This document shows, one piece after another, positions 11,470 to 25,682 of a DNA stretch of 32,000 nucleotides. Position numbers and translations under genes: made by a program. The stretch is from positions 60,001-92,000 of the forward strand of contig CP064962.1 of the NCBI GenBank assembly GCA_016699145.1, in the 5' to 3' direction. The number at the start of each line of letters is the position of its first letter. Position 1 is the first letter of the stretch. The DNA is from Candidatus Saccharimonadota bacterium (GTDB lineage Bacteria > Patescibacteriota > Gracilibacteria > UBA1369 > 2-02-FULL-48-14). A model generated the notes under the pieces. The model did not search any database. It was not told where the DNA came from and was given only the letters and a program-made list of their open reading frames with translations.

Positions 11470-11479
11470 ACTATTTATT

Positions 11480-12091
11480 ATGAAAATAGGCTTAACGGAA
11501 GTCATTCAGATACAGGAAAGTATAAAAATCACAACTGAGATAAGCTCGATTATTTATTTAAATGAATTTCTGAAATACAAGGAGGCTTATGAAAGAGATG
11601 GTAGGAGTGAAATGTTGATTTTTACATTAATTTTCCTTCAAATTTATATTGAGTGTTTTCTCCATCAAAATATGAGGCAAATAATGGAAATGGAATTTGA
11701 GTTCAAAAATCCAGATTTATTTAAGCAATGGGATTCAAAGGAAGAAGAAATGTATGTAGGTAAAAAAGTAAGCTTTTTTACGAACTTCTTCTTCGCTAAG
11801 GGGGAAAACATAGAGTCGCTGGAACTTATCAAGGATTCTTTAAGAGAGATCGGGGGCATGAGGAATAAGATTGTACATGGATACAAATTAAGGAGAGTGG
11901 TTGTGAACGGAAAGACGGAAAAATCTGAAACTCTTTCTCTGTTGAGCGAAGAAAGTTTGAGGGAATATTTACATTCAGCCAATACACTTGGTAATGCTTG
12001 GAATACTCTGTTAGACGAGGTCGCTAAAAAATGTAGGGCCCTCAGGTCAGTAGGTGACTTCAAGTTGGCCCCGTTCAAAATTGATCAATAA
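11480..12091 (+). CDS. HEPN-domain-like protein with an R-x4-H motif (predicted RNase)
   Basis: I chose the ATG at 11480, 10 nt after the previous stop, rather than the overlapping track start at 11417. GGMRNKIVHG is encoded at nt 11852-11881, with Arg at 11861-11863 and His at 11876-11878. That gives the R-N-x3-H spacing typical of HEPN active sites. The motif sits in the C-terminal half of a helical-looking protein of about 203 aa. Confidence 0.55.
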   Translation: MKIGLTEVIQIQESIKITTEISSIIYLNEFLKYKEAYERDGRSEMLIFTLIFLQIYIECFLHQNMRQIMEMEFEFKNPDLFKQWDSKEEEMYVGKKVSFFTNFFFAKGENIESLELIKDSLREIGGMRNKIVHGYKLRRVVVNGKTEKSETLSLLSEESLREYLHSANTLGNAWNTLLDEVAKKCRALRSVGDFKLAPFKIDQ

Positions 12092-12098
12092 ATAGCCC

Positions 12099-12860
12099 AT
12101 GTCATATCCATCGCACTTAGATCAATTCCATATAGACCGTAATACAAAGGCTTTTTACAAATCGCAAAGTTTTCGGAAATTATTAAATTCCTTCGAGGAT
12201 TTCACGAAGAAAGAAGAATTCCAAGAGTTTATCTTGGGATTAAGAGAGAAATACAAAATTCCGCCAAATGGATTCTTAATTAAAGGTAGTACTTGGACTA
12301 CACCTCCAAAAGAATGGATAAGTGAAATGTGGAGTGTTGAACATAGAGAAGTTCAAACTGTTATAAAAGAATTCTGTGAAAACCAACAAATCCCCAATAA
12401 AGACTGGAAATTTGTGATCGAACAATACTTGTTTTTTAATAAGATATTCTTATCACAAGAGCCAAACTCTCATAACCTGTGTTATGTCACAGACATATCA
12501 ACAAGAAAAGATTCCTTAGGACAAGATTTGACGGAGGATTTAATCATCGCCTATCCAGTAGGGTTGTTGATTAGTCCATATGCCTCGAAGAGAGACATTT
12601 TGGATTACATCGAACGGATTTTTACCACTGAGATTAAGCCTCTACAAGAAAAGTATGAGAACGAAGATTCTTTTATAGGGAAAAGCCGCCAAAAAATGAC
12701 ATTAACAAAAAAAAGAGCCAACTTAGTTTGGGAAAATCAGGATAAGCCTCTAAAAGAAATTGCAGAACTCATTAAGACTGTATTGGGAACAGATATAGAT
12801 GTAGGCACAGTCGGAAAACTCCTCTCATTGGAAAGAAAAAAACGTAAGAAACAAGTGTAG
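12099..12860 (+). CDS. hypothetical protein (third gene of the HEPN operon)
   Basis: 253-aa ORF starting 7 nt after the HEPN gene. The C-terminal PLKEIAELIKTVLGTDIDVGTVGKLLSLERKKRKK may be an HTH with a basic tail. No recognisable catalytic motif. Confidence 0.5.
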   Translation: MSYPSHLDQFHIDRNTKAFYKSQSFRKLLNSFEDFTKKEEFQEFILGLREKYKIPPNGFLIKGSTWTTPPKEWISEMWSVEHREVQTVIKEFCENQQIPNKDWKFVIEQYLFFNKIFLSQEPNSHNLCYVTDISTRKDSLGQDLTEDLIIAYPVGLLISPYASKRDILDYIERIFTTEIKPLQEKYENEDSFIGKSRQKMTLTKKRANLVWENQDKPLKEIAELIKTVLGTDIDVGTVGKLLSLERKKRKKQV

Positions 12861-12874
12861 GTCACTTGTTTCTT
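12846..12874 (+). terminator. perfect 12-bp hairpin spanning the stop codon of 12099-12860
   Basis: AAGAAACAAGTG-taggt-CACTTGTTTCTT. No T-run follows it directly. Confidence 0.4.
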
Positions 12875-12884
12875 AGATCAGGAA

Positions 12885-12920
12885 TTAAGACAGATGTAGG
12901 TTCAAAATGTCTTAATTTTT
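12885..12920 (+). terminator. intrinsic terminator candidate
   Basis: TTAAGACA-(15 nt)-TGTCTTAA followed by TTTTT, immediately upstream of the ParB-methyltransferase start. Confidence 0.45.
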
Positions 12921-12923
12921 ACT

Positions 12924-14201
12924 ATGCAGAAAAAAATACCGTTAGAAATCGTTCACATAGACGTAGAGGCCCTCAACCCTGCCCCTTACAATCCCCGTAG
13001 ATGGGACAAAAAGGCAGAAGCAGATCTTACGGACAGTATAAAAAGATTTGGACTCATAGATCCAATACTCGTTAATTCCGCCACCGAGAGACGCAACATC
13101 GTGATCGGAGGTCATTTCAGACTGAAAATAGCCAAGGAATTGGGCTACAAAGAAGTGCCTGTGGTCTTTATTAAGATCACAGAGGAGGAAAGAGAGCGGG
13201 AACTCAACCTTCGACTCAATAGGAATCAAGGAGCCTGGGATATGGAGTTACTACGGAATTTCGATATCTCACTCTTATTGGATGTTGGATTTGATGATTC
13301 AGATCTCCAACACATATGGGACGACGTGATAGAAACGGAAGACGACAACTTTAATGTAGATGAGGAACTCAAGAATATTACGCCTTTCGTTCAGGATGGT
13401 GACCTCTGGGAGCTTGGAAGCCATAGATTGATTTGTGGAGACTCCACAAACAAAGAAACGTTAGACAAGCTTCTTGAAGGAAGAAAGGTGGGGTTCGTCA
13501 CAGCGGATCCTCCATACAATATCGGACTGGATTACAACAAAGGCATAGGGACCAAAGGAAAGTATGGCGGAACCAAAGTGGATGACGATAAAACAGATAC
13601 TCAATATGAAGAGTTTTTAGAAAACTGCCTAAGCAATGCGAAAGACCACACTCTTCTTGATGCCCACTTCTTTTGTTGGTCGGACGAAAGGTACATCGGC
13701 TTGATCCAAAGGGTTTATCAAAAACTAGAAATAGGAAACAAGAGAGTTTGCATCTGGCTGAAGAACAATCAAATGAGCACTCCACAGGTGGCTTTTCATA
13801 AAGTCTTTGAACCTTGTATCTACGGCATTCGAGGAGACCCATTCCTATCCCAGTACCACACAGCCTTCAACGAAGTGATGAACAAGGAGGTGGGTACAGG
13901 AAATAAACTCCATGGAGATGTTTTAGACATGATGAGTGTCTGGCTCGAAAAACGCCTCCCCTCAAACGCGTATGAACATCCAACGGCAAAACCACCGACT
14001 CTTTATGAAAAAGCTATTAGACGGTGCACAAAGCCAGGAGATTTTATCTTAGAACTCTTTGGCGGATCAGGCTCAACCCTCATCGCAGCAGAACAACTCA
14101 AACGCAGCTGCTTTCTAGTAGAGCTAGACCCCCTCTTTTGCTCATTAATCATCAAACGCTATGAAAAACTCACAGGACAAACCGCAAAAAAACTCAATTA
14201 A
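12924..14201 (+). CDS. ParB-like nuclease N-terminal domain fused to a beta-class N6-adenine (or N4-cytosine) DNA methyltransferase
   Basis: 425 aa. The ParB-N signature is ...NPRRWD...IVIGGHFRLKIAKELGY. GDLWELGSHRLICGDS follows, then motif IV TADPPYNIG, then the C-terminal motif I ELFGGSGSTLIAAE. The order IV then I indicates a beta-class enzyme. Confidence 0.85.
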   Translation: MQKKIPLEIVHIDVEALNPAPYNPRRWDKKAEADLTDSIKRFGLIDPILVNSATERRNIVIGGHFRLKIAKELGYKEVPVVFIKITEEERERELNLRLNRNQGAWDMELLRNFDISLLLDVGFDDSDLQHIWDDVIETEDDNFNVDEELKNITPFVQDGDLWELGSHRLICGDSTNKETLDKLLEGRKVGFVTADPPYNIGLDYNKGIGTKGKYGGTKVDDDKTDTQYEEFLENCLSNAKDHTLLDAHFFCWSDERYIGLIQRVYQKLEIGNKRVCIWLKNNQMSTPQVAFHKVFEPCIYGIRGDPFLSQYHTAFNEVMNKEVGTGNKLHGDVLDMMSVWLEKRLPSNAYEHPTAKPPTLYEKAIRRCTKPGDFILELFGGSGSTLIAAEQLKRSCFLVELDPLFCSLIIKRYEKLTGQTAKKLN

Positions 14202-14943
14202 AAAGGGTGATCTCTTCCAGCTCGGAGAACACACCTTGCTATGTGGTGACTCAACAAAAAAGTCAGATGTAGAGACTCTTCTCAAAGGAAAAACCGTAAG
14301 ACTCCTCCTTACAGACCCACCTTATGGTGTCGCCTATGTCGAAGGAAGAATGGAGAAGTCAAAGCAAGAGCATAAGGTGATACAAAATGACCATCTCCAA
14401 TCCGAAGAAGATTATTCCAATTTCTCAAGCCATTGGCTCGAGGCCATAAAGCCCTATTTGGAGGCTAAAAATTCTTACTACATTTTCAACAGTGACCGGA
14501 TGCTGTTTAGCCTCCGAGAAGGGATTAAAAGTCAGGGGTTCAAGATGTCACAGCTCCTTATTTGGGTGAAAACGGGAGCGGTGATCGGAAGATTGGACTA
14601 CAACCCACAGCATGAACTCATTGCCTATGGTTGGCTTGGAACTCATGAAGCATTAAAAGGAAGAGATAAGACAGTTTTAGTCGCACCAAAGCCGCTTAAG
14701 AATGATCTTCATCCAACGATGAAACCAGTCTCTTTGTTGCGACGGCTTGTTTTAAATAGCACCACGAGAGGAGACACCGTTTACGATCCCTTCTTAGGAA
14801 GTGGGTCAACGCTTATAGCCTGCGAGCAGACAAAAAGAAGATGTATCGGAATTGAGATCGAACCAGATTATTGCAAAGTCATTATCGATCGTTTTGAAAA
14901 AATGACAGGTTCGAAAGCGATAAAATTAGCCCCTCATCTATGA
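14161..14943 (+). CDS. beta-class DNA methyltransferase, paralog of the methyltransferase module of 12924-14201
   Basis: 260 aa. It has GDLFQLGEHTLLCGDS, motif IV LTDPPYGV and motif I DPFLGSGSTLIACE. It overlaps the upstream gene by 41 nt. Confidence 0.85.
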   Translation: MKNSQDKPQKNSIKKGDLFQLGEHTLLCGDSTKKSDVETLLKGKTVRLLLTDPPYGVAYVEGRMEKSKQEHKVIQNDHLQSEEDYSNFSSHWLEAIKPYLEAKNSYYIFNSDRMLFSLREGIKSQGFKMSQLLIWVKTGAVIGRLDYNPQHELIAYGWLGTHEALKGRDKTVLVAPKPLKNDLHPTMKPVSLLRRLVLNSTTRGDTVYDPFLGSGSTLIACEQTKRRCIGIEIEPDYCKVIIDRFEKMTGSKAIKLAPHL

Positions 14944-15392
14944 AAGATTCAATCACCTTAAAGACGGCAGAAAATAAGCAGACTCTTTTGGAGCATCTAA
15001 AGAAAACTCCAATTGTACAAGTTGCTTGTGAGAAAACTGGCATAGCCAGAGCCACTTATTACCGCTGGAGAAAAGAAGGTGAAAACTTCGCCGACGAGGC
15101 AGATGAAGCTTTATCTGCGGGAAAAAAGATCGTCAACGACATTGCCGAATCACAACTCATGAAGGCAGTGAGGGACGGGAACATGACTGGGATTATCTTC
15201 TGGCTCAAAAACAACCATCCAGATTACAAAACGAAAGTTGAGGTCTCAGGGAAATTAGAAAATCAGAACAAACTTTCTGCGGAGGAAGAAGCGCAGATAA
15301 AAGCTGCCCTCGGTCACGGAGGCTATTACAACTCTAAACACTATAAATATGACAAAAAATCACGTTCCAAAAAATCTCAAAACAATAATTAA
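14940..15392 (+). CDS. HTH protein, terminase small-subunit-like
   Basis: 150 aa. ATGA start/stop overlap with the methyltransferase gene. It has the HTH TGIARATYYRWRKEG and a GIIFWLKNNHPDYK motif that I recall from homeodomain-like TerS proteins. It lies immediately upstream of TerL. Confidence 0.6.
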   Translation: MKDSITLKTAENKQTLLEHLKKTPIVQVACEKTGIARATYYRWRKEGENFADEADEALSAGKKIVNDIAESQLMKAVRDGNMTGIIFWLKNNHPDYKTKVEVSGKLENQNKLSAEEEAQIKAALGHGGYYNSKHYKYDKKSRSKKSQNNN

Positions 15393-16878
15393 AGATAGGA
15401 AGCTACGAAGAGCTATGACGTTTGAAAGTCACTTCATGTTTTTCCATGTCTATTTCAGCCATTATATCGAACATGCCACGGCAGATTTTCAAAAAGAGAT
15501 GTTCGCACTGACAGAAGATCCAAAGGTGAAAAACATCGTCGTTGTAGCCTTTCGAGGATCGGGTAAGTCCACCATCATGAATACGAGCCTTCCCCTGTGG
15601 TCCATCTTAGGCAAACCCCAGTGCAAACACGTGATTATTGTGGGCCTGACCCAAGACCAAGCGAAGAGACATTTAAAGAATATAAAGCAGGAACTTGAGA
15701 GCAACGAATTGCTAAGAAAAGACTTGGGACCCTTCAAAGAGATTGAAAACGAATGGAGTGCGTACACATTAGAAATTCCAAATTTAGGAGCAAGGATCAC
15801 TGCCGTTTCGGTAGATCAAAGTATCCGAGGCATTCGACATGGGGCGTATAGACCAGACCTCATCATATGCGATGACGTAGAAGATCTAAGTTCCACAAAA
15901 ACCTTAGAAAGCAGAGACAAGGTGGATGAAGTGATTACCAGTGAAATCATCCCATCTGGTACCCCAAAGACACGACTTGTGGTGATTGGGAACCTTCTAC
16001 ATGAAGACTCGTTCATCATGCGTTTAAGGAAACGAATCGTGAATAAGGATTTCAATGGCGAGTTTCGTGCTTATCCCTTACTTGATGAGGCTAATAAATG
16101 TCTATGGCCTGGGAAATTTCCAAACCAAGAAAGCATTCAAGATGAAAAGACGCGAAGCGGAAAAGAGTCCTCATGGCAGCGGGAATACATGCTTAACATT
16201 GTGACAAGTACGGATCGGATCATCTTCCCAGAGTGGATTCATACTTATCCAGAACTTCCTGAGAAAAGCGGTAGAAAAAGTAAATTCAGAAAACTTTATA
16301 CTTCAGTAGATTTGGCTATTTCTCAGCACGACAGGGCAGACTGCACGGCAATGGTGACGGCACAGGTGCATGGCTATGGCGAAGAAATGATCATTTACGT
16401 TCTACCGAATCCAATCAATTTAAGATTAACGTTTGAAGAAACAATCAACACTGCTAAAGGCCTTCACGACAACCATAAATCCACGCTGATAGTTGAAGAC
16501 GTAGCCTATCAAAAAGCAGCAATAGAGACTTTGAAAGGAAGAGGGTGCATCGTTGAAGGCGTTACTCCAAAAGGAGATAAAAGCTCCCGCCTCACTTTGG
16601 TTTCCTATCTCTTTGAAAGAGGGCAAATACTATTTCCTGAGCAAGGTTGCGAGCGTTTAATTCAACAGTTACTCAATTTTGGATTAGAGAGACATGATGA
16701 TTTAGTGGATGCACTAACGATGCTTATTTCATTTGTATCTCAGGAACAAGAAAAATCAAATTTACTGTTTGGATTCTGGAATATGGATGGCTCATCTAAA
16801 CTTGTATATCGAGATCATGTGGAATACACAGATGATTATGGTGGCACCAGAGAGGTCTGGTACGATGAGAAAGCTTAA
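15349..16878 (+). CDS. phage terminase large subunit (ATPase plus RNase H-like nuclease)
   Basis: 509 aa. Walker A is AFRGSGKST and Walker B-like is DLIICDDVED. Acidic residues of the C-terminal nuclease domain are present (SVDLAIS, LIVEDVAYQ, HDDLVDAL). Confidence 0.8.
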   Translation: MTKNHVPKNLKTIIKDRKLRRAMTFESHFMFFHVYFSHYIEHATADFQKEMFALTEDPKVKNIVVVAFRGSGKSTIMNTSLPLWSILGKPQCKHVIIVGLTQDQAKRHLKNIKQELESNELLRKDLGPFKEIENEWSAYTLEIPNLGARITAVSVDQSIRGIRHGAYRPDLIICDDVEDLSSTKTLESRDKVDEVITSEIIPSGTPKTRLVVIGNLLHEDSFIMRLRKRIVNKDFNGEFRAYPLLDEANKCLWPGKFPNQESIQDEKTRSGKESSWQREYMLNIVTSTDRIIFPEWIHTYPELPEKSGRKSKFRKLYTSVDLAISQHDRADCTAMVTAQVHGYGEEMIIYVLPNPINLRLTFEETINTAKGLHDNHKSTLIVEDVAYQKAAIETLKGRGCIVEGVTPKGDKSSRLTLVSYLFERGQILFPEQGCERLIQQLLNFGLERHDDLVDALTMLISFVSQEQEKSNLLFGFWNMDGSSKLVYRDHVEYTDDYGGTREVWYDEKA

Positions 16879-16909
16879 AAAAGCGGGCTGGGTATCCAGC
16901 CCGCTTTTA
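16877..16909. terminator. bidirectional intrinsic terminator between convergent TerL and SLH genes
   Basis: AAAAA-AGCGGGCTGG-gtat-CCAGCCCGCT-TTTT. This is a GC-rich 10-bp stem flanked by an A-run and a T-run. Confidence 0.8.
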
Positions 16910-16919
16910 AGGTAGAGAC

Positions 16920-18515
16920 TTAGTCTATCGTGATTTCCCAGTCCCCATCGGCATCCACATTCATAATGTAATCTCCTGCATCTAGATATTCGGCGGTGTC
17001 TCCGTCAAAATCACCAATCTCATTGGCAAGGTAAGCTACGGTATCCCCATCAGAATCTAAGAGATGAACAATGAAGTTGCTATCTCCAGAGTGGCTCAAA
17101 TTGAATGTTTTAAGGCCAGCAGTCGAAATATGGAAGACTTGAGTGGCAGCATTCCCTTCTCCGCTGAATTCTGAAGTGGAGGTGCTGTCATTGAAGTCGA
17201 CTTGGTCCCAATCAAATGTCCATTCTCCATCCGCTTCAACATGAAGGACATAAGTACGCTCATCCACATATTCTGCTACAGAGCCTTCTGTCTCCCCGAT
17301 CTCATTGGTAAGATAGCTAACGGTCTCGCCACTTTCATCAAGCAAATGAACGATGAAATTGGAATTTCCGTCGTGAGTGAAATTAAAAACGGAAAGACCT
17401 TCTTCTATCTTAATAAAGTCGGTGACGGTTGACCCCTCACCACTGAACTCTTTGGTATATTCGGCATTTGAAGTGTCTCGCGGCTGTTCAATTTTGACTG
17501 TCCATGAACCGTCATCTCCATCAACTTCCAAAACATATTCCCCAGCTTCTTCTATAGAGACGGCAGTCACACCTTCGTAATCGCCAATCTCATTTGAGAG
17601 ATACTCTGTTGTATCTTCAGTAGTAGAAAGGAGATGAACGATAAAATTGCTATCTCCATTATAAGTGAGAGTGACAACAGCCAGGCCTTCTTCGAGGTCA
17701 AAAGATCCAGTTACCTCAGAGTCAGAACCAGAGAAAGTGATATCTTCAATAGAAATGACTGGCTCTTGAACAACAGGTTCCTCAGGTGTGTCAGTTTCTT
17801 CTGGGGCTGTTTCTTCAGTCTCAATCAAAGAAGTGAGGCCTTTCACTGTCAGGAAGTTAGTTTGAGCAGCTTCGCTAAATTCACTTACAGCCATTTCTTG
17901 TACCACCAAGGTACGATAAATGTTTTCTGCCACTCCGCTACGATCCATCTCTCCTGAAGGACTGAAGTTTCCACTGGTCGTTTCAAGTAGGTTTAAGTCC
18001 TTTGCAACATAGACGTAAGGAGCGTACCAAGCGGAGCTGTCGGTGTCGCTAAATAGGGTCGAAGAAACAGTAGTGGGAAGCATGGAACTTAAGCCCAAAG
18101 CATTCACCAGCATTTTGATGGCTTCTACTTTATTCACCGTACTAGAAGGTGCAAAGTTTCCGTCAGGATAGCCATCCACCCACCCTTCTTCATGGGCATA
18201 GCAAACGTACTTTGCGTACCAATCAGTGGTGACATCTGGGAAACAGTTCTTGTAGATGTTTGCATCTGGTTCTATTCCTTGTCCTGAGACCAAAACCTTC
18301 ATAAGTTCCGCTCTATTTATAGTTTGATTTGGCTTAAAGCTGCCGTCTGAATAGCCTTCTAAAGTCCCAATGCTGACGAGGTATTCGATGGCAACGTAAT
18401 TGGTGTTGCTGGAAGCGACATCCTCAAAACTAGAGGCTGATGTGTTAGGGATAAAAAGAGCCGTCATAAGAACGGCTAGGAAGCCTTTCTTAAGATATTT
18501 ATAGACCTGTGCCAT
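16920..18515 (-). CDS. secreted S-layer-homology (SLH) domain surface protein with three C-terminal repeats of about 82 aa
   Basis: I prefer the ATG at 18515 (MAQVYKYLKKGFLAVLMTALFIPNTSASS signal peptide) over the track GTG at 18566. There are three SLH modules: FEDV...YVAIEYL, FPDV...WYAKYV and FSDT...WYAPYV. An acidic linker and three repeats follow. Confidence 0.85.
   Translation of the reverse strand: MAQVYKYLKKGFLAVLMTALFIPNTSASSFEDVASSNTNYVAIEYLVSIGTLEGYSDGSFKPNQTINRAELMKVLVSGQGIEPDANIYKNCFPDVTTDWYAKYVCYAHEEGWVDGYPDGNFAPSSTVNKVEAIKMLVNALGLSSMLPTTVSSTLFSDTDSSAWYAPYVYVAKDLNLLETTSGNFSPSGEMDRSGVAENIYRTLVVQEMAVSEFSEAAQTNFLTVKGLTSLIETEETAPEETDTPEEPVVQEPVISIEDITFSGSDSEVTGSFDLEEGLAVVTLTYNGDSNFIVHLLSTTEDTTEYLSNEIGDYEGVTAVSIEEAGEYVLEVDGDDGSWTVKIEQPRDTSNAEYTKEFSGEGSTVTDFIKIEEGLSVFNFTHDGNSNFIVHLLDESGETVSYLTNEIGETEGSVAEYVDERTYVLHVEADGEWTFDWDQVDFNDSTSTSEFSGEGNAATQVFHISTAGLKTFNLSHSGDSNFIVHLLDSDGDTVAYLANEIGDFDGDTAEYLDAGDYIMNVDADGDWEITID
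16923..17735 (-). repeat. three tandem protein-level repeats (about 82 aa each) in the SLH protein
   Basis: Each unit contains FSGxxS...(G/K)L.V(F/T).(L/F)(T/S)(Y/H).G(D/N)SNFIVHLL...YL(S/T/A)NEIG(D/E)...(V/M).(V/A)(D/E)(A/G)DG.W. The units cover aa 278-360, 374-455 and 467-548 of the track ORF. They are diverged at the nucleotide level. Confidence 0.75.
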
Positions 18516-18531
18516 AGGATTTGGGGTTAGG

Positions 18532-18558
18532 AAACAAAAAAGGGCACCTAGGTCGCCC
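18532..18558 (-). terminator. intrinsic terminator-like hairpin plus U-run just upstream of the SLH start codon
   Basis: The minus strand reads GGGCG-ACCUAGG-UGCCC followed by UUUUUUGUUUC. The element's downstream edge (18532) lies 16 nt upstream of the ATG at 18515. Confidence 0.5.
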
Positions 18559-18571
18559 AACAACACTTGCT

Positions 18572-18648
18572 CCGCGAGGAGTAGCCGATATTGGCTAGGT
18601 ACCCGTCATTGCCCAATATCTGGGTTTGACGAGCAACAAGCCTCGCGG
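18572..18648 (-). promoter_or_regulatory. structured leader element with nested inverted repeats
   Basis: The outer 8-bp pairing is CCGCGAGG (18572-18579) with CCTCGCGG (18641-18648). It encloses GATATTGG / CCAATATC, which can fold as two short hairpins (AGCC-gatatt-GGCT and CCCA-atatc-TGGG) or as one long helix. Confidence 0.35.
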
Positions 18649-18740
18649 TAGGAGCTGAAAAAATGTGTTGTAGAGCGACAGGAGAAGTGTAGCAGGTACA
18701 ACTAAAAAAGAAAGTCAATATTAATCTGTTAAAGATAACT

Positions 18741-19913
18741 CTAAGAGTTAAGCTCAATGATGTTTTTTGCCCTTTGGTAGAGTTGATCAAATGTGATGAT
18801 CTCAGGTGAGGACAGGTTTTTCCTAAAATGCTCGAAACAAGATAATTTATCTGGATTTAAAACCTTCCCACCTGCATCTAAGAAGTCCTTCTCAGTTGTG
18901 CCTATAATGAGAAAGGATTTTGGCTTAAATTGAAAAACTTGCTGTCCAATAAGATTGCCATCTTTATCTTTCAGATCAACGATCTCACCTAAATGATTTT
19001 CAGATATTCTCACATACTGGTGACACTGTGACACTGCGCCGATAAGTTCAGAACTTGGTGCCCATACTCTGCTAGTCCTATACATCTTCTCTTCCAAAAG
19101 AGGAGTTTTATGAGTCTTAATTTCAACAATATTTAGAAAATTAATAAGTCCCAATGTTTTCAATATCCCATCGGGTCTCTTTCCAGGATCATTAAAATCT
19201 GCACCTCTTAGCACCTGCTCAAATTTGCCTTTTTCTATCGGAGCATTAAAGACATATTCTAAACCATAGCCAAATATCCACTTATTTTCTTCGAAAAAAT
19301 GCTGCCAAACATCTTCATCTTTTGATTTTCCCCACTCAGTTTTCTTTGCCTCAAAGAAAACATCATCTGTAAGAAGCCCTTTAAAAGTATCAAGCGCAGA
19401 CCGTTTATGGGCAATGTTGGTAACATCCCCTTCTTGGACAGAGCTGTTTGTGGCAAGTTCAGCTAAAATCCTTTGCCCCTTAGTGTCCGCTAGTATTGTC
19501 TTAAGGTGCATCTTGAGCGCCGCCTCATCCTGTATGATGCTTGCATCAAGAATGAGAGATTTATCTGCGATTGATTTTAAATCGAGTCCACTGAAAATTT
19601 GAAGTAGAGCTAAAATATTTTCGAAACCCATCGTAGAAAAGTTCATTTTCTCAACAGTCTTCCCAGTAGCTTTAGTCAACTGGACCCCTGTAATTTTCTC
19701 GTCATTAAAAATATAAGTCAGACGAAGCTCGACCCTTTTGGAGACTTGAAGCTTTACATCGTAGGGATCAGTTCCTTCATCAAATACAACACTTATATAC
19801 TTGCCACCTCCACCAGGAAAATCTGAAGCATAAATACGGCCTTCCTTTCGATTTTGAAGGATGGAAGCAATCTCAAATGCGGCAACCTCTGCTTGACTGG
19901 GTAGAGTAATCAT
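18741..19913 (-). CDS. Shedu-like (DUF4263-type) PD-(D/E)xK nuclease defence protein
   Basis: 390 aa. The C-terminal region is WQHFFEENKWIFGYGLEY...GKRPDGILKT...LNIVEIKTHKTPLL...ELIGAVSQCHQY. That gives D...E-x-K and then a Q..xY motif, as I recall for the SduA DUF4263 domain. The N-terminal half is unrecognisable, which is typical of the variable Shedu N-domains. Confidence 0.55.
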   Translation of the reverse strand: MITLPSQAEVAAFEIASILQNRKEGRIYASDFPGGGGKYISVVFDEGTDPYDVKLQVSKRVELRLTYIFNDEKITGVQLTKATGKTVEKMNFSTMGFENILALLQIFSGLDLKSIADKSLILDASIIQDEAALKMHLKTILADTKGQRILAELATNSSVQEGDVTNIAHKRSALDTFKGLLTDDVFFEAKKTEWGKSKDEDVWQHFFEENKWIFGYGLEYVFNAPIEKGKFEQVLRGADFNDPGKRPDGILKTLGLINFLNIVEIKTHKTPLLEEKMYRTSRVWAPSSELIGAVSQCHQYVRISENHLGEIVDLKDKDGNLIGQQVFQFKPKSFLIIGTTEKDFLDAGGKVLNPDKLSCFEHFRKNLSSPEIITFDQLYQRAKNIIELNS

Positions 19914-20020
19914 ATTTTTTAGGCAATCATATGTGTAGCAGATTTATGCTTAAACCACTAGCTCTAGCTATCACGATCCATTGTGTCATCTATGTGGGCA
20001 GACCTTAACCCATATAAGAT

Positions 20021-21286
20021 ATGACAGACAACTTGGTAGATCTAAAATACTGTCTTTACGCCCGTAAATCCTCGGAGTCAGATGAAAGACAGGCCTTGTC
20101 GATCGATTCACAAATTACTGAGATGGAGACCTTAGCTAGAAGAGAAAACATTAAAATTGTCGACATTAAAAGAGAAAGTAAGTCAGCTAAAGGATCTGGA
20201 GAACGTCGAGCTTTTAACGAGTTGATCAAGGGGCTTGAGATGCAGGAATTCAATGCAATACTAACCTGGCAGCCAGATCGATTAAGTAGAAATGCGGGTG
20301 ACCTCGGTTCTTTGGTAGATTTAATGGACCGTGGCTTTCTAAGACAAATCAGAACTTTTGGGCAGACTTTCACGAATAACCCCAACGAAAAGTTCTTACT
20401 GATGATCCTCTGTAGCCAGGCAAAACTAGAAAATGATAATCGTGGAATCAATGTAAAAAGAGGCCTTAGAGCAAAGTGTGAGCGTGGAACAAGACCTGGT
20501 GGGGTTCCAATAGGCTATAAACTAATCCGAAGTACGAACTTCAGGGAATCAAGTAAAATCATCGTAGACGAAGAGAGGGCTCCTTTTGTGAAAAAGATGT
20601 TTCAATACGTGATTAAAAATGACTTTAGCGGAAGACAAGTGAATGAATTTCTATCAGATGAAGGATTTCGAACAAGCAGTGGGAAAACGATGGCCTTAAG
20701 CGCAACCTATCGAGTCTTTAAAGAGGCATTTTATTATGGTGAGTTTGAATTTCCGAGAGGCAGTGGGAATTGGTACAAAGGTTCTCATACTCCACTCATC
20801 ACAAAGGAAGACTTCGTTGAAGCAAACAAAAGACTGCAAACGACTCCCAAAGGTAAATGGGGAAGGAAAGAATTTTATTTCAGTAAACTGTTCAAATGTG
20901 GAACTTGCGGATCTGGAATAACTGGCGAAGAAAGGGTCAATCGTTTCGGTAAACATTACACTTACTACAAATGCAATAAATATGGCGGTAGAGGAAGATG
21001 CAGAGAAAAATACATTCGTGAAGAAAACCTGATCGAATCCATTGCAAAACTTGTTGATCAACTCCGCGCAGATCACTTTCGGCTTAGCTCCAGAGTTGAA
21101 AGAGAGGTAGAGAAGCTCAATGATTTAAGGAAAATTTCCGGCGATGCTATGACCAATCCATTAACAACACAAGACTACATCGCTTATATCCTTAAAAATG
21201 GCACAGCTGAGGAAAAAAGAGATCTGTTAAGGTGCGTAAATGGAAAGCTTTTTCTAATAAAAGGTGACATCCAGCACAATTACTAG
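20021..21286 (+). CDS. large serine recombinase (integrase)
   Basis: 421 aa. The resolvase catalytic domain starts YARKSSESDERQALSIDSQ, which contains the nucleophile Ser region. LTWQPDRLSRN, a recombinase domain and the zinc ribbon CGTCGS...YYKC follow, then a C-terminal coiled coil. Confidence 0.9.
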   Translation: MTDNLVDLKYCLYARKSSESDERQALSIDSQITEMETLARRENIKIVDIKRESKSAKGSGERRAFNELIKGLEMQEFNAILTWQPDRLSRNAGDLGSLVDLMDRGFLRQIRTFGQTFTNNPNEKFLLMILCSQAKLENDNRGINVKRGLRAKCERGTRPGGVPIGYKLIRSTNFRESSKIIVDEERAPFVKKMFQYVIKNDFSGRQVNEFLSDEGFRTSSGKTMALSATYRVFKEAFYYGEFEFPRGSGNWYKGSHTPLITKEDFVEANKRLQTTPKGKWGRKEFYFSKLFKCGTCGSGITGEERVNRFGKHYTYYKCNKYGGRGRCREKYIREENLIESIAKLVDQLRADHFRLSSRVEREVEKLNDLRKISGDAMTNPLTTQDYIAYILKNGTAEEKRDLLRCVNGKLFLIKGDIQHNY

Positions 21287-21318
21287 CAATCAATAAACGG
21301 GAGTGCTAAAATCGCTCC

Positions 21319-22161
21319 ATGCTTGATGTAATTATTTTCAACGTTGAACTGGGGCAAAGCATTTTCTTTTACCCAAGAAATAATCCTGAGTATGGAATGT
21401 TTGTTGACTGCGGACATACACAGGATTTTCACCCACTAGATTTTTTGCTTGAGGCAAATTTGATCCATTTGAATGAAAACGTACACACTTTAGGAAATTT
21501 GACCCTTACCAATTACGATCATGATCATTTTTCTGGATTGCCATACCTTCTGGAAAAGACAAATATCTGGACGGTAAGACTGCCCAAGAATATTCACGAA
21601 GATGAGCTGGAGAAAATTAAACCGGAGAAAACAGAGGCACTAGAAAAAGTGTGCCATTTGAAGCGAACCTACACGGGAAGCGCAGAAAATCACGTGCCAC
21701 CCTATAAAATCAGCACTTTTTCTCTTGAGAAAAAAGATTTCCCCGGCGCAGAAATCAACACGAATCATCTTAGCCAGGTTGTTTTTGTGGAATATGGAGG
21801 AAGCACGATATGTATTTCTGGTGATCTGGAAGTGCCAGCGTGGGAAAAAATCTTAATGGATAGAGAAGTCAAGGAATGGCTCCAAAAAACCGATATTTAT
21901 GTTGCGGCCCACCATGGTCGGGAAAATGGTTATGCTGAGGAAATTTTCGAACATTGTTCTCCAGAATGCATAATTTTATCTGACAAAAAAATTATGCACG
22001 GTACTCAGGAAGGAATGGTCCAACGTTATTCAAATCGAGTCCTTGGTGACGGTGTTGCTTTTAACAGGGGCTCGAGCCGAAAAGTACTAACGACCAGAAG
22101 TGATGGACACATTTGGATTCGATTCAAAGAGGGTGGCGTTCGGGAATATGCATCAGTATAA
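21319..22161 (+). CDS. stand-alone ComEC/Rec2-type metallo-beta-lactamase-fold hydrolase (putative nuclease)
   Basis: 280 aa. Block-by-block resemblance to the ComEC MBL domain: FNVELGQSIFF / VDCG, LTLTNYDHDHFSGL (against THxDxDHiGG), NTNHLSQVVFVEYGGSTICISGDLE, YVAAHHGRENG (against kvxHHGSxxs), PECIILSD and TTRSDGHIWIRF. It starts 32 nt after the recombinase stop. Confidence 0.75.
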   Translation: MLDVIIFNVELGQSIFFYPRNNPEYGMFVDCGHTQDFHPLDFLLEANLIHLNENVHTLGNLTLTNYDHDHFSGLPYLLEKTNIWTVRLPKNIHEDELEKIKPEKTEALEKVCHLKRTYTGSAENHVPPYKISTFSLEKKDFPGAEINTNHLSQVVFVEYGGSTICISGDLEVPAWEKILMDREVKEWLQKTDIYVAAHHGRENGYAEEIFEHCSPECIILSDKKIMHGTQEGMVQRYSNRVLGDGVAFNRGSSRKVLTTRSDGHIWIRFKEGGVREYASV

Positions 22162-22167
22162 AAATCC

Positions 22168-22854
22168 ATGAACTACTCCCTAAAAGCACGTTACTTTCCG
22201 GCCGTTATATCGATTCTACCAATCGTGGTATTCAACTACTTTTATCTAAGCCCCTACATCGCAGGCCTTCTCAACGACTTCAATGGTGTTTCGCTCGTCG
22301 TAAGCAACGTTTCAATACCAGCAATCGCCATATACTTCGTGGTTCAACTTAATCGCTTCACGTCCAAGGAGTTATTTGAAAAAAGGATATTTAAAGATGA
22401 ATTGCACATGCCTACGACCAATTTAATGCTATTCTCAACCAAGTTTCTTACGGACGGTTTAAAAGAAGCCTTACATAGAAAGATAACGCATGACTTTGGT
22501 ATAGTACTTCTGGGAAAAACTGAAGAAGCTGGGAATGAAAAATTGGCCAGAAAGAAAATCGTAGAGGCTATGGGGCAAGTGAGATTGAAGGTAAAAAATG
22601 GAAGGCTCGTTTTACAGCACAATATTGAATATGGTTTTGTAAGAAACTTGCTTGGTGGCTCGATCCTTGGAGTTCTAAGCTCAATATGGAATATAATTTT
22701 CTTCGATGAAATCAATCATAATGATTTCGCCTTTAAGGTTTCTGCAGTAATGCTGGTAGCCTTCACACTAATTCTACTTTTCAACAAAATTATTATGGAG
22801 TCTTTTGGCTACAATTACGCAAAAGTACTGATAAACGAATACCAGCAGAGCTAA
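22168..22854 (+). CDS. 4-TM membrane protein with a central soluble domain (unknown family)
   Basis: 228 aa, starting 6 nt after the MBL gene. There are two N-terminal hydrophobic helices, about 95 aa of charged soluble region (KELFEKRIFKDELHMP...RLVLQHNIEYGFVRN), and two C-terminal helices. Confidence 0.6.
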   Translation: MNYSLKARYFPAVISILPIVVFNYFYLSPYIAGLLNDFNGVSLVVSNVSIPAIAIYFVVQLNRFTSKELFEKRIFKDELHMPTTNLMLFSTKFLTDGLKEALHRKITHDFGIVLLGKTEEAGNEKLARKKIVEAMGQVRLKVKNGRLVLQHNIEYGFVRNLLGGSILGVLSSIWNIIFFDEINHNDFAFKVSAVMLVAFTLILLFNKIIMESFGYNYAKVLINEYQQS

Positions 22855-22998
22855 TGCCAATACTGCCCAACACACAGAGGTTCACGGGATGCGAACCCTA
22901 TAAGGCTTCCAAATAGTTCAGCAGAGAGGCCAGTCACACAAAATCCGCCTGCCCTTTTGCCTAGGTGCATGGGTATTGAGTGCTAATAGTGCCCTATT

Positions 22999-23073
22999 TG
23001 GCTGGGGCGGTAGGATTCGAACCCACGAATGGCGGGACCAAAACCCGCTGCCTTACCACTTGGCGACGCCCCA
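22999..23073 (-). tRNA. tRNA-Gln (anticodon UUG), with encoded CCA
   Basis: Hand-folded cloverleaf. Acceptor stem is UGGGGCG/CGCCCCA. The D arm is GCC-AAGUGGUAA-GGC. The anticodon stem is GCGGG/CCCGC with loop UUUUGGU, giving anticodon UUG. The T arm is GUGGG-UUCGAAU-CCUAC. The discriminator is G, followed by CCA. Confidence 0.9.
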
Positions 23074-23137: not shown

Positions 23138-24585
23138 TCAATTCCTAATCAAGGTCTTTATCTGAGATTCTAAGGCTGATTGAACTTGATTCATGTAATC
23201 CGCAGGAATCTTTGAAAGATCCAATTCCTCCAAAGGCAAATATTTCAGCGGGTCCACTCGCACCCCATCCTGCCACACCTCAAAGTGCAAGTGAGGTCCT
23301 GTGGTTCGCGCTCCGGCACCCATGCTGCCCGGATTCCCGCCACTGTACCCGAGCAACTGTCCTCGAGTCACATAATCGCCAATCGCCACTGCCGGCGCAG
23401 AAATATGTCCATACAAAGTGACCACTCCCATGCGATGAGCCACCGTAATATAGGCGTAACGCGTGGACTCTGGATCGTAAACCACATTTTGAACCACTCC
23501 TTCTGCCGGAGCAAAAATGGAAGACCCCTGTTTGGATCGAATGTCGAGCGCATAATGGTCCACTCCAAACGTAGCCTGATACCCACCATCATGAAAAAAA
23601 GCCGTCAAACCGCCCGCCGGGGGGGTGGGCCAATCCAAATCCAATATGTTGGAGGCATCGGTCACGCTGAATTCCGCTGCCATGTCTGCTTGAATTTGAG
23701 CGATCACAGCTTTTTGATCTTCCGAAAGCAAGGCATTGGAGTCTGCAAGTTTTTTCTCAAGCAGATCAATATTGTTTTGATAAATGCGAATCTCACTTTC
23801 CAAATCGCCTTCGCGTTGATCCGCAGAGCCGAGCATGGCCTCCAAAATGGATTTTTCAGCCTGAGTCTCATCCAAAATTTCACTTTGATGCATTTTTTCC
23901 ACCTCAAGCGCGGCCAATTCTTCCATCAATTTCACTTCACTTTCACTCAGTTCACTTTGTTTTTGACGGATGGCCTCCCAATGGTCACCCAATTCCTGGG
24001 TGAGTGCCGTCAAATTTCCAATGTGTTTTTTGGTTTCTCCGGCCACGACATTCAAATAAGTGATTTCTTGCAAAGTTTGTGAAACCGAGTCGGGGCTGGC
24101 CAAAATCTTAACTGGATTCACCCCTTCTTTGTTGTAATAAACATCGCGTTTCATATACAAGAGCATCATCAGCTCTTTTACGATTTGTTTTTCTTCTTCC
24201 CTTTGAATTTCCAAATTTTTAACCTTATTTTGCAAATCTTGCAGCTCCATATTCTTGGCTTCTTCTTGAGTTTTAACGTTTAAAATCTGACGCTGCGTGT
24301 CTTCAATTTGTTCCTCCAAATTCTCTAGAATTTTTTCCAAATTGGCGATGGATTCAAGGGCTTCCTCCATGTTTTTTGAGCGGTCTCCAAGTTCTCCTCC
24401 AATAAGGTGTAGCGATATTGAATTTGAGCCACTTTTTGCTTGAGTTGCAGCAGTAAAGTGTTTTGTTCCACAATGCCCGTCAGAGTTTGTGTACTCACGC
24501 CTTCCGCCTCATCAGCTCGAACAGGAGGGACAAAGAGGGAAAGCAATAGCCCCAAAATCACGACGATAGCAAAGATCTTTTTCAT
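23138..24585 (-). pseudogene. EnvC-like coiled-coil M23 (LytM) peptidase, reading frame split at a homopolymer
   Basis: The signal peptide and coiled-coil start (ORF 24325-24585, MKKIFAIVVILG...) continue in a different frame as ORF 23138-24370. That ORF has a long coiled coil and the C-terminal M23 motifs DIRS...GxxV, HRMG...LYGH and GPHLHFEVW. Adding one A to the A6 run (plus-strand T6 at 24372-24377) joins them as ...LETAQKNMEEALES.... Confidence 0.8.
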
Positions 24586-24620: not shown

Positions 24621-25682
24621 TCAGGAATTCAAGGGACCCAGTCCCAAATAACGTTCAATCAATTTCACGTTCGCCGCCGGAAAGGCCATATCTTTCAATT
24701 CCTGAGGAGGCACAAAGCGCCACTCGCTGGCGGCCGTAAGGCGAACCTGGTCGCCAAGAGGTTCAGCCAAATAACAGTGCAAATCCACCTGATAGCGAGT
24801 GTAAGCGTGTTGCAGATTCATGAGGAAGCGCAAAGGACCTAAACTCAAGCCCGTTTCTTCTAAAACTTCACGTCGCAAGGCCTCTTCAATGCTCTCACCG
24901 GGCTCCACTTTTCCACCTGGAAATTCCCAAAGCCCACCCATCAGACCTTTTTCATGCCGTTTTTGCACAAAAACTTTGCCTTCTTTTTCTAAAATCGCAA
25001 TCGCCACTTGAATTTTCACCTTGCTGGGCCCGGGACCCTTGTTTGGCAAACTCACTACCGTGCCGGCTTCAAAAGCCTTGCAATGTGCCTGAACCGGGCA
25101 GCTCGAGCATTTGGGATTTTTAGGTGCACAAATGAGGGCTCCGAGTTCCATGAGTCCTTGATTGAAATCCCTAGCCTGACCCGGAGGCAATAACTCTGCT
25201 GCTCGAGTCCAAAAAAAGTTCATGTTTTTCTTCACATCTCCTTTAAAATTTTCCAGACGACTGAGCACACGCACCACATTGCCATCCACTGCCGCTTGAT
25301 TTTGATTGAAGGCGATGCTGCAAATGGCTCCTGCGGTGTAAGGTCCAATGCCGGGCAAGGACAAAACCACCTCAAAATTCGAAGGAAAAACACCGCCGTG
25401 TTTTTCTACAATCTGCCTCGCTGCTTTTTGCAAATTGCGAGCGCGGGAATAATAACCCAGCCCTTCCCACAGTTTCAGCACCTGTTCTTCGGGGGCCGCC
25501 GCCAGTGCTTCCAAGTTTGGAAAAACCTTCATCCAACGGTCAAAATAGGGGAGCACGGTCGCCACCTGGGTTTGCTGCAGCATGATTTCTGAGATCCAAA
25601 CCTGATAGGGCTCGTAATGAAGCCGCCAAGGCAGCTTTCTTTGCTCTGTTTTGAACCAAGATAAAAGATCGTCTTGAAACAT
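24621..25682 (-). CDS. mutY: A/G-specific adenine DNA glycosylase
   Basis: 353 aa. It has LPWR...PYQVWISEIMLQQTQV, the HhH-GPD motif LPGIGPYTAGAI, the 4Fe-4S cluster CxxxxxxCxxCxxxxxC (CAPKNPKCSSCPVQAHC) and a C-terminal NUDIX-like domain (GLWEFPGGKVEPGES). Confidence 0.9.
   Translation of the reverse strand: MFQDDLLSWFKTEQRKLPWRLHYEPYQVWISEIMLQQTQVATVLPYFDRWMKVFPNLEALAAAPEEQVLKLWEGLGYYSRARNLQKAARQIVEKHGGVFPSNFEVVLSLPGIGPYTAGAICSIAFNQNQAAVDGNVVRVLSRLENFKGDVKKNMNFFWTRAAELLPPGQARDFNQGLMELGALICAPKNPKCSSCPVQAHCKAFEAGTVVSLPNKGPGPSKVKIQVAIAILEKEGKVFVQKRHEKGLMGGLWEFPGGKVEPGESIEEALRREVLEETGLSLGPLRFLMNLQHAYTRYQVDLHCYLAEPLGDQVRLTAASEWRFVPPQELKDMAFPAANVKLIERYLGLGPLNS

Follow-up and report, generated by a model that had tools for sequence, protein, structure and literature searches.

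A conserved pair of a ComEC-type metallo-beta-lactamase protein and a small membrane protein at a Peregrinibacteria defence hotspot

We analysed a 32,000-nt stretch of DNA from Candidatus Saccharimonadota bacterium (contig CP064962.1, positions 60,001 to 92,000; hereafter the window), in which a large serine recombinase gene (REC) is followed by genes for a stand-alone ComEC-type metallo-beta-lactamase (MBL) hydrolase of 280 amino acids (aa) and for a 228-aa protein with four transmembrane (TM) helices (4TM; Table 1). With a probability of roughly 0.6, the MBL and 4TM genes form a two-gene conflict module directed against phages or mobile genetic elements, in which an MBL phosphodiesterase/nuclease is joined to an obligate partner of the Csx27 superfamily. 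We consider it likely that MBL-4TM is a module of the defence type. This reading builds on the MBL fold and its active-site signature, on the topology of the 4TM protein, on synteny seen from both partners and on a genomic slot shared with a cyclic oligonucleotide-based anti-phage signalling system (CBASS) and an ATPase system. The pair is real and probably defensive; it is widely conserved, and its pairing has already been predicted computationally.

Conserved pairing and an exchangeable slot

Homologs match the two open reading frames (ORFs) at E-values down to 1e-192 (MBL) and 1e-136 (4TM), and we therefore take both to be genuine genes; the database annotates them as 'hypothetical protein' (QQR55039 and QQR55040) and REC as 'recombinase family protein' (QQR55038). 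The 4TM family comprises 218 matches in a word-indexed search and 1841 clusters at 50% identity in an exhaustive search (E<=1e-3). For a survey from the 4TM side, 80 genome loci were fetched, with hosts among the Bacteroidota, Patescibacteria (candidate phyla radiation, CPR), Gamma- and Alphaproteobacteria, Zixibacteria, Cloacimonadota, Chlorobium, Fibrobacteres and Verrucomicrobia, together with a Bifidobacteriaceae metagenome-assembled genome (MAG) and Methanoregula. A tblastn search with the window MBL placed a neighbour beside 4TM in only ~20 of these loci. Clustering of the neighbours identified one divergent MBL superfamily that adjoins 4TM in 75 of 78 loci and falls into seven subfamilies, all matching the PDC-M48B models of PADLOC. 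With hidden Markov models (HMMs) of these subfamilies, an MBL ORF is found <=300 nt from 4TM in 66 of the 80 loci, 65 of which have both genes on one strand, and the median distance between them is 3 nt; the remaining loci mostly have a gene encoding an E2-E1-JAB fusion between the two (MBL - E2E1JAB - 4TM). The MBL may stand either upstream or downstream of 4TM, and the closest relative of the window 4TM (L001, 74% identity) is paired with a different MBL subfamily. Adjacency at this frequency, despite variable order and the different MBL at L001, means that the pairing is kept while the partners are shuffled.

The same picture emerges from the MBL side, where a small membrane protein is encoded <=300 nt from the MBL in 66 of 80 metagenome loci with a window-type MBL. 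Thirty-seven of these partners belong to the 4TM family, 17 are a Csx27-like variant of 200 aa, and 12 are a 161-aa protein that PADLOC identifies as PDC-M48A (2e-63). A survey of the neighbourhoods of 4TM homologs had been proposed in a first-pass annotation of this DNA, made from the sequence alone; it finds the synteny, and the tight, recurrent coupling of the MBL to a small membrane protein holds in both collections. The pair sits between hsdM and hsdS in 6-7 loci, has LexA-like S24 repressors (14 MBL loci) and CapP/IrrE-type M78 peptidases as neighbouring regulators, and is present on conjugative or mobilizable plasmids, including Acinetobacter plasmids of the pOXA58 type. Two IMG/VR contigs carry it as well.

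Among the contextual evidence, it is the interchangeability of MBL-4TM with recognised defence systems that speaks most strongly for a role in defence. We compared the window with sister contigs L164, L165, L173, L175, L176, L177 and L178 by blastn and junction alignments. The backbone is 87-96% identical in the sister strains that carry CBASS, the ATPase system or a LexA-like cassette: the upstream 7 kb of L175 matches window positions 11787-18731 at 96.5% identity, and L176 shares the downstream M23 peptidase and MutY genes of the window. REC is retained (87-90% nucleotide identity for the copies in L173, L175 and L176), and a variable slot lies on either side of it. Slot A is occupied by Shedu in the window and in L177 and by a Type I restriction-modification (RM) system, hsdRMS, in L173, whereas L164 and L175 have nothing there. 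Slot B holds MBL-4TM in the window, L164, L165 and L178, a CBASS consisting of a CD-NTase and a Cap15-type receptor/effector in L175, an AAA_15/21 ATPase with a 449-aa gene in L173, and a LexA-like gene with small ORFs in L176. From the exchange with CBASS and the Shedu and RM neighbours, it follows that the site is a two-slot defence hotspot in Peregrinibacteria in which MBL-4TM is exchangeable with recognised defence systems. What had first been described as a defence-gene neighbourhood is thus in fact a hotspot, with CBASS, an ATPase system and Type I RM in sister strains.

Homology at slot B stops inside the last ~16 codons of REC (~21238) and restarts right after the stop codon of 4TM, and REC C-termini vary between variants (421, 423 and 426 aa). 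The flank beyond (TACTGCCCA...hairpin...tRNA-Gln) is kept in the window, L175 and L173 despite their differing cargo and includes a T-arm-like hairpin (22878-22898). At slot A, Shedu is a precise 1.23-kb indel (window 18732-19963 compared with L164:1853-1855 and L175:6944-6946), bordered by an imperfect 12-bp direct repeat (left, TTAATCTGTTAA; right, TTAAACCACTAG; empty site, TTAATCTGTTAG). The borders of slot B could be recombination sites; neither att-type direct repeats linking tRNA-Gln to the upstream boundary nor att-like repeats at slot B were found.

Because REC persists where the cargo to its left and right varies, it forms the conserved core of the hotspot and does not belong to the MBL-4TM system; REC and Shedu alike are hotspot neighbours rather than components. 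The first-pass annotation had the small membrane protein, described as unrelated, riding on a recombinase-borne cassette, which has to be revised, as the recombinase stays while the flanking cargo is swapped. We likewise rejected the recombinase as a conserved third component: recombinases lie near the pair in only ~7 independent loci of ~165 (L011, L017, L050, L116, L141, L168 and L169), and sister strains carry other cargo. These observations also bear on a non-defensive reading, according to which the pair would be mobile-element cargo, either an addiction/toxin-type stabilisation module or a serine-recombinase accessory factor. Such a reading would account for the position of the pair 32 nt downstream of REC and for the large serine recombinases a few kb from it in those ~7 loci. 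It is, however, highly improbable given that the vast majority of ~160 loci have no such recombinase, that the same recombinase has entirely different cargo in sister strains, and that recognisable defence systems (CBASS, Type I RM, Shedu) make up this other cargo.

Homologs of the window recombinase (32-46% identity) are encoded a few kb from pairs in Paceibacterota (L011), Zixibacteria (L017) and an unclassified MAG (L050), and near pairs in metagenome contigs too (L116, L141). Their occurrence may point to a lineage of islands associated with serine recombinases in which a module of MBL and membrane partner is frequent.

The two proteins and the systems they resemble

The MBL protein consists of the MBL fold alone. 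It matches Pfam Lactamase_B weakly (8.6e-6) and, in the PADLOC run that had been suggested for it, PDC-M48B models over nearly its full length (PDLC04674, 1.6e-26; PDLC04675, 3.5e-25); PADLOC MBL models filed under LmuA, RTasMBL and Avs1a also match, more weakly. The ComEC_Rec2 model TIGR00361 is matched at model positions 488-634 only (28.5 bits against a cutoff of 190). In an AlphaFold2 (AF2) model of high confidence scores (pLDDT 92, pTM 0.92), the top fold match in the Protein Data Bank (PDB) is the beta-lactamase-like domain of ComEC (9ic4; E=7e-15, TM-score ~0.7), followed by the Pce/CbpE esterase and the RNase J/CPSF73 nucleases. The only PDB chains matched by a sequence profile of the family are those of ComEC, to which its NN and GD...HHG blocks align. 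The partial TIGR00361 match, the fold match to 9ic4 and the ComEC-only profile matches uphold the earlier description of this protein as ComEC-type and channel-less. They also speak to the alternative raised there, a housekeeping MBL unrelated to ComEC: the ComEC MBL is both the best fold match and the sole profile relative in the PDB.

An alignment of family members at 50-64% identity (A2) contains the blocks quoted in the first-pass annotation as part of a conserved family, with N65, Y66, D67, D69, H70, N149, G168, D169, H198, H199, G200, S221, D222 and a TTRxDGH block invariant. Compared with canonical MBLs, ComEC has Asp for one motif-II His (H-x-D-x-D-H) and Asn for the motif-III His, and its MBL domain is an extracellular, Mn2+-binding nuclease (Silale 2021, PMC8579336). 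In the window protein, motif II reads N65-x-D67-x-D69-H70, the motif-III Asn is N149, and motifs IV and V are represented by D169 and H198/H199. Two His are therefore changed relative to the generic HxHxDH, and only the first, to Asn, relative to the ComEC-type HxDxDH, against which the earlier remark that the first metal-motif His is replaced holds true. Since both ComEC hallmarks are present and only this first His is changed, the protein is a ComEC-type MBL without the competence channel. It is probably a Mn2+-dependent phosphodiesterase/nuclease. Like ComEC/Rec2, its only solved relatives, it has the domain fold, the motif-II D-x-D-H and the motif-III Asn; unlike the window protein, ComEC/Rec2 has a competence channel and an OB domain and keeps the first motif-II His. 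Neither the sequence nor the model has a TM segment or a hydrophobic, signal-like stretch at the N-terminus, and so the MBL protein should be cytoplasmic, unlike the extracellular ComEC domain.

The 4TM protein has the layout TM1-TM2, a conserved helical domain of ~95 aa, and TM3-TM4. AF2 helices (all-helical model; pLDDT 92, pTM 0.84), hydropathy and a positive-inside analysis all support four TM helices, in agreement with the arrangement read from the sequence at first (2 TM, ~95 soluble residues, 2 TM). Lys and Arg residues are concentrated in the central domain (on average 16.5, against 3.0 at the N-terminus, 3.9 at the C-terminus, 1.3 in loop 1 and 0.4 in loop 3), a positive-inside distribution that places both termini and the central domain in the cytoplasm. 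Invariant residues are mostly cytoplasmic as well (R63/K67, E78, M81-P-T-T-N85, R128, R139 and Q150-H-N-I-E-Y-G-xx-R-N-xx-G-G164), and include the signature motifs MPTTN and LQHNIEYGxxRNxxGG. No Pfam, NCBIfam or PADLOC model matches the protein. A PDB sequence-profile search gave no relative, a fold search of PDB and BFVD gave no significant one (best PomA, E=0.65, TM-score 0.22), and the model resembles neither the competence domain of ComEC nor any channel of known structure.

Sequence comparisons through intermediates suggest that the window 4TM belongs to the Csx27 superfamily. The 200-aa variant aligns with the 4TM family alignment A3 in HHalign (93% probability, E=3e-7) and matches PADLOC Csx27 near full length (4.9e-8); the L158 protein matches both the 4TM HMM (3e-8) and PADLOC Csx27 (5.4e-9); and the 4TM protein of L078 reaches 0.032 against the Csx27 model. 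The link runs through these proteins, as the window 4TM itself has no direct match to that model at E<=0.1. The L158 protein, encoded next to an MBL at L158:4945-5709 (-), also matches tm_4 (1e-4) and, weakly and in the N-terminal TM1 region, PDC-M48A (0.014). An N-terminal 'Y-x6-P' motif is common to the 4TM family, the 200-aa variant and PDC-M48A. Given this motif and the cross-matches of the L158 protein, the three partner families may be very distant relatives.

As judged by its title and by papers that cite it, an earlier study describes Csx27 within a 4-TM family encoded with natural-transformation and ubiquitin-system genes (Makarova et al. 2019, FEMS Microbiol Lett 366:fnz088; cited in PMC7642515). 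On the same grounds, the operons of this family resemble the window in having a small four-TM protein beside a ComEC-related component, and resemble the loci surveyed here in E2/E1/JAB variants (17 loci) and MBL adjacency (66/80 loci). Csx27 proper, the accessory of type VI-B1, differs from the window protein in adjoining cas13b and a CRISPR array: the window contains neither a large HEPN protein nor a CRISPR array, and Cas13b occurs in none of the fetched loci. Candidates for Cas13b beside the pair in L078 and L066 are actually a DnaE2-like polymerase and an Mfd-like protein.

Two of the citing papers report a prediction that Csx27-family proteins form channels for single-stranded DNA (ssDNA) linked to natural transformation (PMC7642515; PMC11662929). 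Applied to the window, this prediction, which those papers attribute to Makarova et al. 2019, would make the pair a split ComEC-like conduit, with a Csx27-family ssDNA channel and an MBL that degrades DNA during uptake; its purpose could be to take up DNA, to scavenge nucleotides (attractive for CPR bacteria) or to degrade foreign DNA on entry. In favour of a conduit, ComEC is the sole solved relative of the MBL by both sequence and fold, and several hosts are CPR/Patescibacteria. In ComEC, however, the MBL is extracellular, whereas the window MBL lacks both a signal peptide and TM segments, and the conserved domain of 4TM lies on the cytoplasmic side. The resemblance of the MBL to ComEC does not extend to the 4TM model, which is unlike the competence domain or any solved channel, and a sporadic, mobile pair that is swapped with CBASS, an ATPase system and RM is a misfit to housekeeping uptake. 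Fusions to PNP and AGS-C domains (see below) are features of conflict systems. We therefore regard a conduit as improbable.

PDC-M48 is a candidate from a 'guilt-by-embedding' study (Payne et al. 2024, bioRxiv 10.1101/2024.01.29.577857; cassette FAM_01875>>FAM_00178). It resembles the window in combining a small multi-TM protein with a PDC-M48B MBL; MBLs ~50% identical to that of the window pair with genuine PDC-M48A in 12 of the surveyed loci, and some pairs lie inside Type I RM, the kind of embedding by which PDC-M48 was discovered. Its A component, a TM protein of ~164 aa, is absent from the window, and its order is A>>B, as against B and then the TM protein. That 4TM is itself PDC-M48A was rejected, with no PDC-M48A match in the window 4TM or 11 other family members and an HHalign probability of 0.2% (A3 against A5). 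Because the membrane partner is not PDC-M48A, PADLOC would not call the window system.

The type 6a operon is a two-gene arrangement of an E2-E1-JAB triple fusion and a specialised MBL, with no membrane protein (Iyer et al. 2006, PMC1779556). Its MBL belongs to the same superfamily as that of the window (a single family linked by BLAST and HMM). Unlike that operon, the window lacks E2-E1-JAB, its MBL has only REC and 4TM as neighbours, and the MBL does not end in Gly. The first-pass annotation had asked whether the pair might be Rst_Hydrolase-3Tm, and it is not the same: the hydrolase of that system is HAD-like (Rousset et al. 2022, PMC9122126) rather than of MBL fold, with no PADLOC cross-match. 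What the two have in common is the layout of a hydrolase with a small TM protein at a mobile-element defence hotspot, a similarity of analogy rather than homology. An enzyme is likewise combined with a small membrane effector in Cas13b-Csx28 and in those type I CBASS whose effector is a TM protein, and the likeness to CBASS extends to an optional E1/E2/JAB regulator and an AGS-C sensor domain that attach to the enzyme. In contrast to type I CBASS, the window lacks a CD-NTase and shows no sign of nucleotide signalling, and its enzyme is an MBL hydrolase.

Variants of the module and its possible mode of action

In 17 of 78 4TM loci, a triple fusion of Prok-E2_A, ThiF and Prok-JAB lies within the module, in the order MBL - E2E1JAB - 4TM. 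MBLs of subfamilies 2 and 3 located directly upstream of it end in Gly or in Gly plus 2-3 residues (...RAG, ...PMG, ...QRG, ...HGAS; loci L003, L008, L013, L015, L020, L042, L055, L064, L065, L072, L073, L171:4254-5354 and L172:2776-3969). Other MBL subfamilies lack a C-terminal Gly, and the window MBL ends in ...REYASV. A conjugated C-terminus is known for the CD-NTases of type II CBASS. By this parallel, the C-terminal Gly suggests that the E2E1JAB-linked MBL is a substrate conjugated by E1/E2, with trimming by JAB.

Further domains attach to either partner. Some MBLs carry at their C-terminus an AGS-C domain, otherwise typical of CBASS and Pycsar cyclases. In P0324 (500 aa), a PNP_UDP_1 domain that matches PADLOC's CBASS 'Effector PN-superfamily' and PDC-M60C is fused to the N-terminus of the 4TM module. 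Its gene is followed at L168:6001-10087 (also L169 and L170) by a subfamily-6 MBL, a 54-aa ORF and a subfamily-3 MBL-AGS-C fusion, with a 530-aa large serine recombinase 1 kb downstream of the L168 cassette. On Acinetobacter plasmids, WYL and 4TM genes lie beside a subfamily-2 MBL, a ThiF-family protein of 751 aa and DUF4011; WYL/helicase proteins are reportedly also found in the Csx27-family association. A conjugative plasmid of Runella has three MBLs around a 4TM gene and a restriction endonuclease alongside, and a SEC-C-domain protein stands there in place of E2-E1-JAB.

At L167:4488-6035, a 4TM ORF (P0068, 344 aa) is in frame with the C-terminal part of a subfamily-0 MBL, the N-terminal part of which is encoded in a different frame, and an Exo_endo_phos_3 nuclease gene lies upstream. 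This fused ORF was not used as Rosetta-stone evidence, as it stands beside a fragmented MBL and may be a frameshift artefact.

Under the reading we favour, the MBL would act on a nucleic acid or nucleotide during infection, and its activity would be coupled to 4TM through the conserved cytoplasmic domain of the latter. The 4TM protein would then compromise the membrane and bring about abortive infection, comparable to the Cas13b-Csx28 pore or to a CBASS cyclase with its TM effector. The defence context is supported by hsdM-hsdS embedding, CapP/M78 and S24 neighbours, related PADLOC MBL models (LmuA, Avs1a and RTasMBL), AGS-C and PNP fusions, plasmid carriage and slot exchange. The order of action, with the MBL as upstream enzyme and 4TM as membrane effector, is held only tentatively. 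It is favoured because AGS-C, and E2-E1-JAB with the C-terminal Gly, attach to the MBL, because the PNP effector domain attaches to 4TM, and because the membrane partner is replaceable by PDC-M48A.

The reverse order was also considered, in which 4TM senses a phage perturbation at the inner membrane and releases or activates a cytoplasmic MBL nuclease, without itself being toxic (Kiwa- or Zorya-like). PADLOC lists MBLs of the same clade within other defence systems, as their LmuA, Avs1a and RTasMBL components, the many invariant polar residues in the cytoplasmic domain of 4TM suit specific protein-protein signalling, the MBL domain of ComEC is a proven nuclease (PMC8579336), and in the two-gene 6a operons the MBL can be the only candidate effector (PMC1779556). 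On the other hand, it is 4TM and not the MBL that is fused to an effector-type PNP domain, while sensor-type AGS-C and E2-E1-JAB regulation sit on the MBL. That the partner can be replaced by PDC-M48A, which is not detectably homologous to it, is also easier to reconcile with a generic membrane effector than with a specific sensor. A sensor role for 4TM thus appears rather unlikely to us.

Several observations weigh against the reading we favour. Across the 80 genome loci, defence and housekeeping genes both flank the pair, and the surroundings are not uniformly defence islands; no match to the pair was found in phage records. LmuA relatives in Lamassu are effectors, and two-gene 6a operons, having no membrane protein, likewise fit the MBL as an effector rather than a trigger. 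Csx27 lowered Cas13b interference in E. coli, with no obvious fit to a pore effector (PMC11662929). The ComEC of S. pneumoniae has the same change of the first motif-II His to Asn, and its activity is uncertain (PMC8579336). A literature search found no experimental study of any family member, and PDC-M48 is explicitly presented as an experimentally untested candidate (Payne et al. 2024).

Features of the window and their meaning

Coordinates of the features discussed here are given in Table 1. Those of the three ORFs are all as first called, with 32 nt between REC and the MBL ORF, 6 nt between the MBL and 4TM ORFs, and 144 nt between the 4TM ORF and tRNA-Gln. The three Pfam domains of REC (PF00239, 7e-19; PF07508, 1.8e-9; PF13408, 1.4e-9) identify it as a large serine recombinase. 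Shedu had been placed directly upstream of REC and divergent from it, as the PADLOC match bears out; its product is an SduA with the DUF4263 nuclease domain. Scans for promoters and terminators gave background levels only. In the spacer between 4TM and tRNA-Gln there is no tRNA remnant or other Rfam family, tRNA-Gln itself being the only match.

Table 1. Positions of genes, slots and other features in the window
Feature	Coordinates	Strand	Basis or remark
Phage-like block	10888-16878
ParB_N-N6_N4 methylase fusion	12924-14201
Second N6_N4 methylase	14161-14943
Small-terminase-like HTH protein	14940-15392
Large-terminase-like protein	15349-16878
SLH-domain surface protein	16920-18566	-
Variable slot A, holding Shedu	18732-19963		blastn, junction alignment A7
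Shedu SduA	18741-19913	-	PADLOC SduA 1.3e-90; Pfam SduA_C PF14082 1.9e-26
Large serine recombinase (REC), 421 aa, QQR55038.1	20021-21286	+	Pfam Resolvase, Recombinase and Zn_ribbon_recom
Variable slot B, holding MBL-4TM	~21238-22852		blastn boundaries, junction alignments A8 and A9
Stand-alone ComEC-type MBL hydrolase, 280 aa, QQR55039.1	21319-22161	+	Pfam, PADLOC, AF2 fold
Probable Csx27-superfamily inner-membrane protein (4TM; placed through intermediates), 228 aa, QQR55040.1	22168-22854	+	AF2 model, HHalign via intermediates
Conserved right flank of slot B (TACTGCCCA ... hairpin 22878-22898, then tRNA-Gln)	22855-22998
tRNA-Gln, anticodon TTG, right-hand hotspot anchor	22999-23073	-	ARAGORN; Rfam tRNA 59 bits
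M23 peptidase with long coiled-coil N-terminus	23138-24370	-	downstream of tRNA-Gln
MutY-type HhH-GPD and NUDIX_4 glycosylase	24621-25682	-

Upstream of the hotspot, the phage-like block includes three ORFs without Pfam matches and has a GC content of 0.34-0.37 at 11-12.5 kb. No structural genes follow its terminases; the block, 96.5% conserved in L175, may represent what is left of a prophage or else a satellite-like element. The SLH-domain protein next to it has three internal repeats of ~110 aa, each with GDSNFIVHLL, and is ~72% identical to its ortholog in L164, compared with ~89% identity for the adjacent REC-MBL-4TM block. The M23 peptidase and MutY genes downstream, which L176 has too, form a conserved housekeeping context.

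The first-pass annotation had put the pair forward as a candidate new system, and much of it turns out to have been described in parts: the MBL is already PDC-M48B (Payne et al. 2024), the membrane protein probably falls in the Csx27 superfamily, whose association with competence and ubiquitin genes was described by Makarova et al. 2019 (as cited in PMC7642515), and the variant with E2-E1-JAB and an MBL is type 6a of Iyer et al. 2006. The window pair appears to be the minimal two-gene form of the computationally described association between the Csx27 family and ComEC-like MBLs, with an MBL subfamily of the N-x-D-x-D-H type. It is not a complete PDC-M48, ComEC, 6a operon, type VI-B accessory or Rst_Hydrolase-3Tm. 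What may be new is the unification of PDC-M48, Csx27-family operons and 6a, the C-terminal Gly pattern, the PNP-4TM fusion and the two-slot hotspot of Peregrinibacteria.

These connections bring together three separately described entities, the PDC-M48 of PADLOC, the Csx27 family of Makarova and the 6a operon of Iyer. They may even constitute one immune class, in which an MBL in the position of the CD-NTase, equipped with AGS-C or serving as an E1/E2 substrate, activates a Csx27-like protein that aborts infection; we find so broad a unification doubtful at present. If it were true, the effector would be a Csx27-like protein with or without a PNP ATP-nucleosidase domain, the window would represent the minimal, regulator-free form, and Csx27 would accompany Cas13b as a nuclease-gated membrane effector. 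The links among the three entities give a tangible starting point for explaining what Csx27 does in type VI-B CRISPR, and the C-terminal Gly of E2E1JAB-linked MBLs predicts a conjugated MBL, as with the CD-NTases of type II CBASS.

Should the pair be a working defence, it would be a widespread one, with ~1,800 4TM clusters at 50% identity in Bacteroidota, CPR, Proteobacteria and others, including an archaeon. Current tools miss the module when the partner belongs to the 4TM family instead of being PDC-M48A. For the Peregrinibacteria, the serine-recombinase/tRNA-Gln hotspot is a source that could be mined for further CPR defence genes.

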